Shown here: positions 13,828 through 53,870 of the stretch, piece by piece
Numbering within the stretch: position 1 is the stretch's first letter
How the letters are laid out: each line of letters starts with the position of its first letter
Source of the DNA: Lytechinus pictus
Lineage: Eukaryota
NCBI RefSeq assembly: GCF_037042905.1
Contig: NC_087251.1
Coordinates: 35,528,001-35,592,000 of the forward strand
Direction of reading: 5' to 3'
DNA length: 64,000 nt
Program-made: the position numbers and the translations under genes
Notes under the pieces: generated by a model
Databases searched by the model: none
Told to the model about the DNA's origin: nothing
Seen by the model: only the letters and a program-made list of their open reading frames with translations

Positions 13828-14001
13828 TGTGTGTGCTATTGAGTTTTAACAGACGTGTAATCAATCAGATATAATTATTTACGTCTGGGACCGACCTATC
13901 ACGTCACCATCCGAAAGACGTGACCAGGGCTCGAACCTCTGCATCAATTAGTAACTTCCCCCACATAGCTTGGATTGCAGGCGCACGCCACAACACGAAG
14001 T
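13828..14001 (-). mobile_element. SINE with a 7SL(SRP)-RNA-like head, B box and Deu/Nin-like central domain, (CA)n tail
   Basis: Minus strand reads GTGGCGTGCGCCTGCAATCCAAGCTA (13991-13966), then GGTTCGAGCCC (13937-13927), then CACGTCTTTCGGATGGTGACGTGATAGGTCGGTCCC, ending in CACACACA. Confidence 0.7.
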
Positions 14002-14284: not shown

Positions 14285-17200
14285 TTGAATTAAAAGCAGA
14301 ATGGATTCAAAAGATAAAGGGCAAATTACTGTTATGGGATTTTTTTAAAATGAAAATGAGACAGTTTATTAATACTTATACAAAAGAAAAGGCAAAGGTC
14401 AGAAAAAATTAAATTAAAAAAATAGAGAAAGAAATAGAAGAATTAGAAAATAAACTTTTGTCTCAGACATTGAGAAGGATAGAAAGGAAATATTGAAGAA
14501 GATTGGAACGTATTATGAAAAATTATACAAATTGAGTGAAGCTATTGTTAATGAAAATTATTTGTTCCTTAAGGATATTCCTCAATTAAGTAAAGAAAGT
14601 TGTAATATATGTGAAGGTAGAATAAGTATTCATGAATGTTTAAGTGTTTTAAAAGAAATGAAATATAATAAATCCCCTGGTAACGATGGTTTTACGGTAG
14701 AGTTTTATTATACTTTTTGGAATTTAATAGGCGGACTTTTGGTAGATATTTTAAATGAAACATATGAATGGGGAACACTGACAACCTCACAAAAGCAAGG
14801 TGTGAAAACGTTATTGGGAAAAAAAGGTAAAGATCCATTATATGTCCAAAATTTTAGACCAATTACACTTTTAAATGTGGATTACAAAATATTGTCAAAG
14901 GTTTTAGCAAAAAGATTAAAAGGTATACTAAATTAGATTATTCACAATGATCAAGTTGGTTATGTAAAAGATAGGAACATTGGAGATGGTGTAAGATTAA
15001 TAGATGATATGTTATATCAATCTAATTTTTAAAATATTGGATATTTAATCACTGTTGATTTTGAAAAGACCTTTGATTCTGTTTCACATGATTTTCTTTT
15101 TGAGATCCTTAAACTATTTGGATTTGGGCACTCATTCTGTTCGTGGGTCCGTGTTTTATACTCGGATATTACTAGTAGTGTTATGAATGGGGGGGTTTTC
15201 TTCCGGTTATTTTAATATAAAGCGAGGGGTAAGACAGGAGGATCCCCTCTCCCCATATTTGTTTCTGCTCTGTATTGAAATACTTGCTCTGGCAATAAGG
15301 AAAGACAGAAAGGTTGAAGGAATTCAATTTCAGAACCATGAAATAAAGCAAATTTTGTATGCTGATGATATATCATTGTTTGTAAAAAAATACACACTCT
15401 TTAGAACGTCTTCAATACCTTTTTGAAGAATTCGAGAAAATTAGTGGTCTAAAAATAAACAAAGGAAAAACTAATATTTTGTGGATGGGTCGGGATAATG
15501 ACAGACCTCAGACACAGTTGTTTGGGAATTTCGTTCAGCATGTTAAGATTTTAGGTGTTTACTTTTCTCTTAATGTTATGATAAAAGAGGACATGAATAA
15601 CGAAGAAATACTTAGTAAAATAAAAAGACTGTTGGGATGGTGGAAACAAAGGGATCTCACACTTATGGGGAAAATTCACTTGTTAAAAACATATGCATTG
15701 TCAAGGCTAAACTTTGTTTCGTCACTAAGGGTGCGTTTATCCGCCACTTTTTTACCCTATAATCATGATTCCAATCATGATTCAAATCACGATTCTGCAG
15801 AATCACGATTGCGTTTAGTCGAAATTGAATATAATCATGATTAGAATCACAAACATGAACTACGAAAAAAAGGGCGTTTGGAAAGACGTTTCTGCAGAAT
15901 CACGTACGAAAATGTTCGGATAAACGATATCGTGATTTGAATCATGATTATATGACGTCATTGTGTCGAGCTATTTCCGGTTCTTGCCAAGGCGCGCGCC
16001 CCACGTTGTCACATCACATGTACGTCGCCGACCTCCAATTAAGTGTCCAACGTTGACCTATACTTCCTGGGTCAAACTGCGCACTGTGATGCGCACTGGA
16101 TCGGTCCGAATCCGAGGAGAAACAGCGTTGGAACGAAGGTCGTCTAAACCCTGATTCTGTAGTAATTGTGATTCATGTTTGTGATTTGAATCATGATTCC
16201 AATCATGATTCAAATCACGATTCTGGCTTGAGGTCGGATAAACGCAGCCTAATAGTGGTTCCTCATATGCAGAGGTTGAAAAGATCACATTTGAATTTTT
16301 ATGGTCAGGAAAAGATCGGATAAAGAGAATTATAATGTACCAGGATTACTCACAAGGAGGTTTAAAAATGATGAATTTTAAGTTGTTTGTAAAGTCTCAA
16401 CGTTTAATGTGGCTTAAACGATTACTTTACGGAGAACGGGATGCAGGATGGAAGTTGTATTTTTATTTTTGTTTTCGATCAGTTGGGGGGAGATTTCTGT
16501 TTCTATGTGACTTTGACACTTCAAAATTAAATATAAAATTACCCCAATTTTATTCAGAAATGATGAAGGCTTGGCAAGACTTAAGGAAATATCGTTATTC
16601 TGAAGAGGAGGTTAACCCTATTATATTCAATAATCAACATATTTGTATAAAAGGTAAAACAATTTTTGACAATGATCTTTTCAATAAAGGAATATTTAGC
16701 GTTGATCAAATCTTTGATAATGGCCACTTGAAGCCTGTGACTTTTTTTCAAAATCTCGGTATTACCGCAAATCAACTTCTCCAAATAATAGATATTGTGC
16801 ACGTTATACCAGCAAGTTGGAAAAATTTTAATAGTTCAATAAAGTTTTAAAAATTGATTTCGTAGACTTCGGGATAAGTATGAATATTGGAAAACAGGAA
16901 ACAGCTTTTGAAGTAATTAAATCAAAAACAATTTATAACTTGTTTATTACCAATCTACAAGTGCTATACAAATTAACACTCAAGGATGGTCACAGTGATT
17001 TTAATTTTACGGATGTAGAAATTTGTAAATTATTTGGATATATCAGGAGTACAACTCTTATAAGAAAACAAAGGGAATTTCAGTTTATGCTTTTACATGG
17101 AGCAATATATACAAAAGAACATTTGATGAGATTTGGTTTCGTGGGAGATAATTATTGCTCGTTTTGTTGTACAAAAACTTAATCGTACTTTCATATACTC

Positions 17201-31300: not shown

Positions 31301-34300
31301 GGGCTATAGACATTTATTAGCTTATCCAGCTTAAAGATAAGGGAGAAAACTAATCATTGCAATAGATTGCATGAGCAAAATGTCAACATTAGCATACCAA
31401 AAGGTTAATAAACACCTACCCCAACAGACTTGACAGCCTTGATGAGTTTCCTACTCTCTAAATTCTTCAGAATCTTGTTGAGTTGAGTTAGTTGTAGATT
31501 GCTCTTTAATCGGATATCTCGTGTCCATATTCCCTTGTTGCCTGATTGCTCGATGATCTGATATACAAGACGTTCCTGATTATCAGCTCCTTTGATTTTA
31601 CTACAAAAATAATATAAGCAACAGTAATCATTTAACAAAATTTTAACATATAACATAAAATAATAGTTCTCATATAATAAAATGATGATGACAGCTATCA
31701 CGTTGTATACATCTTCATTTATCAAATGATAAGATACATTTTCAATGCAGATTTGAATCCTGGCTAAGTATTCACCCCCCCCCCCCCTCCCATTAATAAC
31801 AAGTTACAATAAACCAGTCTTTTCTGCATCGACCAAATATTTCATTTATCACATGAAACCCTTATACGAATTACCAGGAAATGACAGCATTGGTCCAAGT
31901 CAAATAGTGACACTTAAGTTCATTCATTTCAAGGAATAATGAATGGAAATTACCTTACAACACCAGGATCCTTCAAACGGTACAGCAATTCAGTGCTTGT
32001 CTTCACCAAGTCTATTTTACCCTAGATAAAAGAAAAGGATGCAAATTAGATTTCTTCATCAAATATGCTCTGAATTGTAAACAAATAGGAATTACTGAAT
32101 CAAAATTATGTTTTTCATATTTATTTTGAAGGTATACCTTTGAAGGTATACCTTTTGGAGTCATTGTGTTGCTTAACTGAGAATATATTCTCAGATTAGC
32201 AACACAATGACTCCAAAATATAATGAATGCCTCTGACAACCACCTTCGCGGGGGAGGGGGGGTGAAAAAAGAAACTCACTGATGAAAGAAGTCTGTTGAC
32301 AGCCGATACTCTCTGTTGAGCATCAATGTTTGGAAGTTGCTTCTGAATAGCCGAATCTCGAATACCATCTGATTCTCCTTTACATAGTTCCAGGATTCTG
32401 TAATTTGAACAAGAAAACAGATTACAAAAGTTCAAATTAATTGGTTACTGTTGATGAGATAGACCATAATGTCTTGAGATACAATGTAAATTCAAAATAA
32501 TGGAAAATCAACTGTTTCAAATTCACATTTATAAAAAAGTGACTATGTCAGGTATTGACAGCAAAATAAATAAGCCTTCAAATCAAATAATGCCAAATTA
32601 TCTGCCTGGACTAAAAGAGAGAGATTAAGTGACACTGACTGTATTTTATTCTAGTCTTATACACTCTAGGACTAGTAGGAGGCAGTGAGTGGGAGTCTTT
32701 GGGACCTAAAAAAAGGTTGAAAAAAGCTGCCAGCGTAGTAAGACTTTCAAGTACCATTGTACAAAATCCACAGATATTTAATAAAAAGTTTTACCTTAGA
32801 TATAATTTGTAATATCTAAATTGCAATAAACAATAATAATTTCACTCAAGGAAGTTCATATCTAAACGAAAAAAAAAACTAGTCGTCATGCATTTGTGTA
32901 CTGCCACGGGAGGCGACTTTCTACAAGTGCACCTCCCCATATATGTACGATTGTTGACTATGAGGTCAATAGGTTACGTTTTGAGTCACTTTTGACCTCA
33001 TTGGTACTAGAAGTGGTCTTATAATTTAGATAATTTCATTGCAACTGCAATGCAACTTTCACAATCCAGATTCCAGGTCCAGCCTCCAGGACTGGACTCC
33101 AGTCCAACATTTTTTTACACAGAAAAGGGCAAAATTCATAAATAGCAACAAAAAAAACAAGTGACAACAAAAGTTTAAGTTTTCGTGTCCGTTTCCTTCA
33201 TATCAAAAGAACATTATGACTACCGGTACTTTTCCAAAAATCTAATGGCCCGTATTCTGAAGTCAGGTTTAACTTAGACCATGGACGGTCTAACTCTGTG
33301 CTAAAATTATGGGAAGCCAAAAGTGTCAAAATGTTTATTAAGTTGTATGTTTTGTATGTTTACTGTGCTCTTTCCTGATTCATCGATGATGAAGACAATC
33401 AATTTTAATTTTATACTTCCTAGACAATTATCAGGATTATGAATGATTTGAGAGCCAAATGAGCTGAAATATGATATCTCTACTGTTAATAGTGATTTAT
33501 GTAACCATTGGCTTACCATACTTAAACCACAACTTAAAACCTGAGTTTAAGTTAAACCCGACTTCAGAATACGGGCCAATATGTTTTAATTTTTATATGA
33601 ATGTGAAATTGAAAATAGCAATACTAGCTGTATGGCAGTGTATCCTATTGCCGGACACCTTTATTTCAGTGCTTTAAAAATGACAACTAGAGGAAATACA
33701 ATCAAGAAAAAATCACACTTGCTATTCCAAATATTATGAAAATTATGAATATGATAAAATTATTTTATAATTATATTTACCAACCATTTTCTTTGCATCG
33801 CAGTTGCCGCATACCCCTCCATGAAAAACAATTATTTTCGTGCGCGACAAATTACATCATGATTCCGGACGCGCGCCGGACGGGTAAAGATATCCTTGAT
33901 TATAATGATGTAAGAGCAAATTTGTGTGATTTTTTTCTTCTTATATCATATCATGAGTAAATTCTAAGTATTATTTGCTTTTTTATATCGAATCTGAGCA
34001 GATGTTGGTAATAAATTCGTGTTTGATAACTTATTTTATTTTGTCTTGTTAGCTGCATGTTCCATGGCACTTTCCAATAATAATATGCTCGCGTTCGTAT
34101 CATATCGTGACGCTCATCAAGTTCTATCGATGCGCTGCCGATCGACGGCTCTACTCACGGTAAACCTCGCGCACGGGTACCTTGAGAACTAGCCATCGAC
34201 GATCACCCACAATACACCACACCTCATCATTCGATCGAAGGAGTGGACGAGATTGAAATTCGGCAAATCAGGCCCATATTTCCGTTAGAAAATACATCAA

Positions 34301-34851: not shown

Positions 34852-53870
<19,019 letters not shown>

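Follow-up and report, generated by a model that had tools for sequence, protein, structure and literature searches.

A young chimeric SINE family with a 7SL RNA-derived head in a sea urchin genome

A real, multi-copy, young and chimeric SINE family in a sea urchin genome has a head copied from the 5′ Alu domain of the animal's 7SL RNA. The window, which is the whole 64,000-nucleotide stretch of DNA analysed here, contains a single copy of this family at 13828..14001 on the minus strand. The original prediction had placed a 7SL-derived SINE at this position and on this strand; both were confirmed, and 14001 is the true 5′ end of the family. The window copy is full-length and among the most decayed copies seen (6.8% from the majority sequence), and no target site duplication (TSD) was found flanking it. 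Most of the evidence below therefore concerns the family as a whole, which very probably originated as a chimera, the 5′ end of 7SL having replaced the A-box half of the head of an older SINE.

The family has a length of approximately 170 nt and an estimated 1,400–1,900 copies in the genome. A genome search (812 Mb, 368 contigs) gave 1,378 first-look candidates on many contigs, 40 of which were scored and were 89–93% identical to the window copy. The copy-number check suggested with the original prediction was run on the source genome by counting 20-mer patterns with ≤2 mismatches, using the reversed patterns as controls, and revealed a dispersed family: 1,427 matches for the head (control 0), 1,887 for the body (control 0), and 1,457 for the tail (control 31). 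Matches were found on both strands of many contigs, in agreement with the size (<1 kb), the interspersed occurrence, and the copy number of at least 100 given for SINEs in PMC3531059. A head–body junction present only once had been named as evidence against a family; the junction is multi-copy, as 17 of 21 position-ordered body matches carried the full 7SL head, one a decayed head, and three lacked most of it, with no tRNA head among the 21. The chimeric structure was uniform across 72 full-length copies, which distinguishes the family from a plain 7SL retrocopy. Median divergence was 1.25% (range 0–4.3%) in 17 position-ordered full-length copies, a value biased towards young copies because the divergence samples were picked by best scores or exact 20-mers. 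Among 24 listed sequencing runs, 14 contained at least half of the query words, 13 of them under one organism label and one under a second; four were guessed to be RNA, all as contigs, and small shares in metagenome runs did not enter the evidence.

The head (13954..14001, minus strand) derives from the host 7SL RNA gene and comprises its nt 1–44/45. Seven full 7SL genes were identified in the host with the Rfam Metazoa_SRP model (272–283 bits), with SINE copies scoring below the cut-off. Nucleotides 1–47 of the family were identical to these genes at 40–42 of 46–47 aligned positions, and according to the Rfam structure line the match extended as far as the final base of the 5′ Alu domain's closing helix; beyond this helix, identity dropped to 9/30. 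Heads of family copies gave local scores of 63–73 versus host 7SL (shuffle maxima 28–34), and the window-copy head, identical at 36–37 of 48 positions, gave scores of 47–52 versus the host 7SL genes (shuffle maximum 32–35). In Rfam scans, the copies L038 and L007 matched SRP with E values of 4.4e-6 and 1.6e-4, respectively, both below the gathering score; only SRP-clan and Alu-like miRNA models were returned for these two copies, and neither tRNA nor 5S was matched at E ≤ 1. With the window copy alone, none of SRP, tRNA, and 5S was matched at E ≤ 10, and ARAGORN found no tRNA within the window. A host tRNA-Lys matched the SINE at the B box only; this direct comparison spans one amino-acid family, as only tRNA-Lys was returned among the host loci checked. 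The claim that the head is of 7SL rather than of tRNA or 5S origin is thus borne out. The homology covers 44–47 nt with 40–42 identities, compared with the SINEBase value of at least 60% identity to tRNA, 5S, or 7SL over at least 60 nt (PMC3531059), and an overlap of 60 nt is not genuinely reached because only 9/30 positions match past the 7SL piece. The host tRNA-Lys genes form a tandem array at G000:C4:9.70–9.74 Mb (L048–L067 and L072–L075) with a spacing of approximately 470 bp and both anticodons.

The SINE from nt 47 to its end gave no plus-strand match to the seven 7SL genes (p 0.15–0.96), from which it follows that the family lacks the 3′ strand of this domain; the minus-strand comparison gave p values of 0.01–0.3. 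A double change in the closing helix, from C3-G to U3-A, is common to the family and the 7SL gene L037 (G000:C12:4895279–4895577), making this gene the likeliest donor lineage. L037 also has the longer loop 4 of the SINE head and keeps the upstream element of the other 7SL genes; it either represents the donor lineage or was itself converted by the SINE.

The retained piece contains two hairpins along with the helix that closes the domain, and it includes the UGUA junction, which reads UGCA in the window copy. The putative pol III A box lies within it at 13988..13997 (minus strand; two changes in the window copy), as assigned by analogy to the 7SL A box in PMC7245038. All 11 tested Rfam pairs were canonical in four family heads. 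In 70 copies, the eight inner pairs were conserved in 67–70 and the three closing pairs in 53–63, and UGUA was kept in 66; the first five head bases were ragged, with 12.6% changed. The window copy has three substitutions at nt 4–7, the altered UGUA motif, and 9 of 11 canonical domain pairs. The head fold was no better than that of its own shuffles (z 0.17).

In HeLa cells, 73–86% of Alu retrotransposition is retained with a 5′ Alu domain of 46 nt, which binds SRP9/14, and the Alu 3′ strand is required only for its B box, truncated RNAs being unable to move twice (excerpts of PMC11760393). The urchin head corresponds to the truncated domain of that study, with a borrowed B box. By analogy with Alu, it is somewhat favored that the head would fold as an SRP9/14-binding 5′ Alu domain, bringing the RNA to ribosomes that make the LINE protein. 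A serious but less probable competitor is that the 7SL piece served as A-box donor only and has no SRP9/14 role, the breakpoint being a by-product of template switching at the end of a structured RNA. This would fit the head showing no higher conservation across copies than the remainder of the SINE (1.9% versus 1.4–2.1%) and loop 4, which gained 1–3 nt, varying between successful subfamilies, a change that could weaken SRP9/14 binding. A tail hairpin and microsatellite also suffice to mobilize relatives without a 7SL head (see below), and the family is modest in size, comparable to a host Deu-SINE family with 1,922 candidates. However, an A box takes only approximately 15 nt, yet the entire domain was kept with its 11 tested pairs and UGUA, and the differences lie in a loop that also varies between Alu and 7SL, with activity preserved (PMC11760393).

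Evidence for a head replacement came from relatives with other heads. The exact body 19-mer was found in four marine-metagenome contigs (L131–L134, each a single sequence) and in no viral contig. Body and tail of L131, L132, L133, and L134 were identical to the urchin family at 71, 77, 76, and 79 of 81 positions, respectively, whereas the 7SL head gave no match to any of the four (p 0.5–0.9). The heads of L132–L134 contain tRNA-type A- and B-box motifs by eye, and none of the four heads was called tRNA by Rfam. L133 and L134 carry internal duplications and have a common head with different flanks; the tails of the four sequences are (CA)n or (CCAA)n. Because the same body and tail stand behind non-7SL heads in L132–L134, a head swap is indicated, and the proposed grafting of 7SL onto an old SINE body thereby gained direct support. 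The likeness of the bodies may be due to strong conservation, to close hosts, or to horizontal transfer; L131–L134 contained no ORF usable for host assignment. Among 36 body/tail matches inspected in the host genome, none was a tRNA-headed parent.

The head is followed by a non-7SL linker of 16 nt (13938..13953, minus strand), which has 7 additional nt in 16 of the 72 copies, the most diverged ones included; the long form apparently represents an older subfamily. The linker matched the heads of L133 and L134 weakly (p 0.02–0.5), and the L134 head matched 9 of the first 10 nt after the 7SL piece. The linker is probably a remnant of the tRNA-like head of the parent, as far as these alignments indicate. 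The predicted pol III B box after the head was found at 13937–13927 on the minus strand; it is of tRNA type, and the same 11-mer is present in 57 of 70 copies. Both A- and B-box motifs are present in family copies, and no T-run of more than three was found inside the SINE. Two candidate patterns for a B-box donor were rejected: a tRNA-Arg-like pattern had no match in the genome, and a looser tRNA-like pattern had 12 weak matches, of which six were fetched and proved to be an unrelated tRNA-like repeat (five) and an old SINE copy (one). Loci L107–L111 represent another repeat, in which a T-rich stretch comes after a tRNA-like head with A and B boxes, and include one inverted pair.

Six of the seven host 7SL genes (L031–L036) have a near-perfect tRNA-type B box 19–43 bp past the gene end, at +317 to +341 from the start, in four flank types. 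The internal B-box region of these genes is weak, a 22-mer of the downstream element occurred at four 7SL loci only, and ARAGORN found no tRNA at the 7SL loci. The downstream B box may be an extragenic promoter element, by analogy to the one known for yeast U6; nothing on it was found in the literature searched. Its presence raises the alternative that the B box of the SINE also came from a 7SL locus, where a deletion would have fused 7SL nt 1–45 to the downstream B box, the resulting mini-gene then capturing the body. When the position of the B box was kept constant, L091, L040, and L031up, three of the five linkers of the long form, aligned to three 7SL flanks with p values of 0.006–0.07, but these values are not robust given 54 comparisons. 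Moreover, a tRNA-like repeat, chosen by a SINE-like pattern, scored equally well, the short-form linker, L038, and L112 had no match to the 7SL downstream flanks, and L037, the 7SL gene nearest to the head, is devoid of a downstream B box. Above all, L131–L134 already have a B box, at the same 6-nt distance from the Deu block as in the urchin family, for which reason an origin downstream of 7SL was demoted and is considered improbable.

The B box inherited from a tRNA-like head, as the preferred reading has it, is followed by a 34-nt block of the Deu/Nin domain (13887..13920, minus strand). This block was identical at 26 of 34 positions to four copies of a tRNA-headed host Deu-SINE family that were not picked for the Deu motif, a value at or above that of every shuffle, and at 28 of 37 positions, by eye, to AmnSINE1 as depicted in Fig. 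S4 of PMC7245038. The first 34–37 nt, corresponding to approximately a quarter of the Deu domain, are present, and the other approximately 100 nt are absent; SINE nt 115–162 had no match to the host Deu-SINE copies (p 0.84–0.9). The Deu/Nin-like body of the original prediction therefore holds for its 5′ block, whereas the remainder of the approximately 130–140-nt Deu domain is missing, and the family, with only a partial Deu domain, is not a Deu-SINE proper. The block sits where Inv is placed in the excerpts of PMC5804259 and PMC4758252. The predicted Deu motif in its canonical form occurred once in the genome and led to the host Deu-SINE family, a second young family of 328 nt with a tRNA-like head, a full Deu domain, and 1,922 candidates (L086, L127–L130), in the heads of which ARAGORN identified no tRNA. 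This family was rejected as the direct parent because head, spacer, and tail all differ.

The 3′ part of the element contains a tail stem-loop (13850..13887, minus strand) and ends with a short (CA)n microsatellite (13828..13849, minus strand). The family tail hairpin was significant (−13.0 kcal/mol, z −5.5), and its fold is also present in L132 and L134; it is the likely recognition site for a LINE reverse transcriptase. Folding of the whole window copy gave a z value of −0.36. The CACGTC/GACGTG hairpin originally proposed for the body had to be abandoned, as it needs a substitution private to the window copy and the corresponding family segment gave z −0.2 versus shuffles. The (CA)n tail was correctly predicted but comprises only approximately four units in the window copy.

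Dispersal of the family was evaluated from the flanks and ends of the copies. At most loci, the flanks are unrelated, and homology does not reach beyond nt 1 on one side and the CA tail on the other. The simple-repeat tails are (CA)n of variable length, and seven of 79 copies are 5′-truncated, some of them with TSDs. TSDs of at least 8 bp were found in 12 of 61 single full-length copies compared with 14 of 3,658 mismatched flank pairs, a difference that identifies them as real; at ≥5 bp, the numbers were 29 of 61 and 289 of 3,658, and 32 of the 61 copies, including the window copy, had no TSD of 5 bp or more. The set left out dimers and loci with shared flanks (L017, L026, L031, L035, L036, L039–L044, L076, L079, L115, L116, and L123). 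The TSD check suggested at the outset thus turned out positive for the family and negative for the window copy.

Shared flanks do occur in some copies (L039–L044, L114/L115, L120/L123, and L031/L035/L036) and would be expected if the unit were not self-propagating, that is, if a single insertion of a 7SL fragment next to a remnant of a SINE had created a unit later spread by segmental duplication or a DNA transposon. Unrelated flanks at most loci, the end points of homology, the TSDs, the variable tails, and the 5′ truncations all speak against this explanation; it is largely refuted by the TSD and flank analysis and is regarded as very improbable. Head-to-tail SINE dimers were observed at L017, L039, L041–L044, and L116, and the dimers of L039–L044 travel in a larger repeat, as their flanks are shared across different contigs. 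A diverged SINE copy (approximately 8%) ends approximately 35 bp upstream of each of the 7SL genes L031, L035, and L036 in a tandem cluster (G000:C10:7.91–7.92 Mb) and represents one event; L033 and L034 are empty-site paralogues of this insertion.

Judged from these sequence marks, the family is mobilized by the established mechanism of target-primed reverse transcription by a LINE enzyme. No partner LINE was found among 15 tail matches in 14 loci lacking exact head/body matches, all of which were SINE copies, and a search with the 3′ 100 nt of the SINE likewise returned SINE copies only. Close to the window copy, broken frames of a non-LTR retrotransposon lie at 14454–17182 on the plus strand (weak RVT_1 match, E 7e-4, below the cut-off), interrupted by a short repeat-bounded insert near 15761–16225; no link between these frames and the SINE was seen. 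The window further contains degenerate tandem repeats at 52383–53606 and 38000–38947, with periods of approximately 266 and 230 bp, respectively, and, at 31423–31602 on the minus strand, an exon encoding part of RPC6/POLR3F, a pol III subunit. The latter was 100% identical to the proteins of two camarodont urchins, Lytechinus pictus and Strongylocentrotus purpuratus, compared with 95% for Diadema, 85% for Acanthaster, and 78–82% for the vertebrate proteins among the matches listed, which identifies the host as a sea urchin.

In the proposed scenario, the parent would have been a SINE in which a tRNA-like head preceded a short 5′ block of Deu/Nin, with a hairpin tail and a microsatellite at the 3′ end. 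Template switching or recombination would then have put the first 44–45 nt of a host 7SL gene in place of the half of this head that contains the A box. The chimera may then be transcribed by pol III from the 7SL A box together with the inherited tRNA-type B box, and a LINE enzyme may recognize the tail hairpin and prime at the CA repeat. Most likely, the family functions in the manner of a hairpin-tailed SINE with an Alu-like handle.

In the excerpted texts of PMC7245038 and PMC13023118, known 7SL SINEs come from Euarchontoglires/supraprimates, hagfish, and shrew mole, and all keep both 7SL ends around a central deletion; PMC13023118 (2026) states that 7SL SINEs are limited to these groups and that all arose via a similar central deletion. 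No description of a 7SL SINE from a sea urchin or another invertebrate was found in the open literature searched, and it is rather unlikely that the family already has an entry in a database such as Repbase or Dfam. With a weight just short of even, we tentatively consider it the fourth independent origin of a 7SL SINE and the first outside vertebrates, assembled from a bare 5′ Alu domain, a B box of foreign origin, and a body with a hairpin tail. The urchin family fits neither the taxonomic limit nor the central-deletion rule stated for 7SL SINEs.

By the origin of its head, the family is a SINE1, whereas SINE2-1_SP and SINE2-2_SP have tRNA heads. Its closest counterpart is SINE1-1_EBu from the hagfish Eptatretus burgeri, where, according to the excerpts of PMC7245038, an independent 7SL head was likewise placed on an older tRNA-type SINE body and tail. 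This family is also young, has a similar number of copies (2,363), a microsatellite tail, and a partner other than L1. Its head, however, contains the 5′ 96 nt and the 3′ strand of 7SL, and thus the whole Alu domain and the 7SL B box, compared with nt 1–44/45 only in the urchin family. Further, SINE1-1_EBu has a bipartite RTE tail and TSDs of approximately 17 bp, whereas the TSDs of the urchin family are short or absent, and the latter differs by its foreign B box, its body with a Deu 5′ block, and its invertebrate host.

Alu, B1, and the shrew-mole Urop (PMC13023118, in excerpt) resemble the urchin family in a 5′ end from the host 7SL, an intact 5′ Alu domain, and internal A and B boxes. They arose by a central deletion that kept both 7SL ends, have poly(A), and depend on L1 as partner; in contrast, the urchin family has a tRNA-type B box and no 3′ 7SL strand, and a hairpin with a (CA)n tail stands in place of poly(A). 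Because of the missing 3′ strand, the foreign B box, and the lack of poly(A), it is not of the Alu/B1/Urop type. A tree-shrew unit of dual 7SL/tRNA origin, mentioned in PMC13023118, is a possible precedent for a hybrid head but is mammalian, multimeric, and descended from the Euarchontoglires lineage.

With Deu/Nin/Inv SINEs (excerpts of PMC4758252, PMC5804259, PMC5786205, and PMC7245038), the urchin family has in common the first 34–37 nt of the Deu/Nin domain. The addition of a 5S head before a tRNA remnant has been described for Deu-SINEs (PMC4758252, PMC5804259, and PMC5786205); in the urchin family, the head donor is 7SL instead of 5S, and the remaining approximately 100 nt of Deu are absent.

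The minimal Alu constructs SA46/AY46 (PMC11760393, in excerpt) share the same 5′ domain and the same structural cut with the urchin head but are artificial, driven by pol II, dependent on poly(A) and L1, and, because they have no B box, unable to go through a second round. The part of 7SL retained in the urchin is that sufficient for SRP9/14 binding in human cells, which makes it testable whether the Alu domain is a general aid to retrotransposition or an L1-specific trick. Should the head bind SRP9/14 and thereby increase mobility, hitch-hiking on ribosomes would be a portable module that aids stem-loop-dependent, non-L1 SINEs. The relatives with tRNA-like heads and a near-identical body provide a natural control, and together with the young age of the family and a tractable embryo system they make head-swap assays straightforward.
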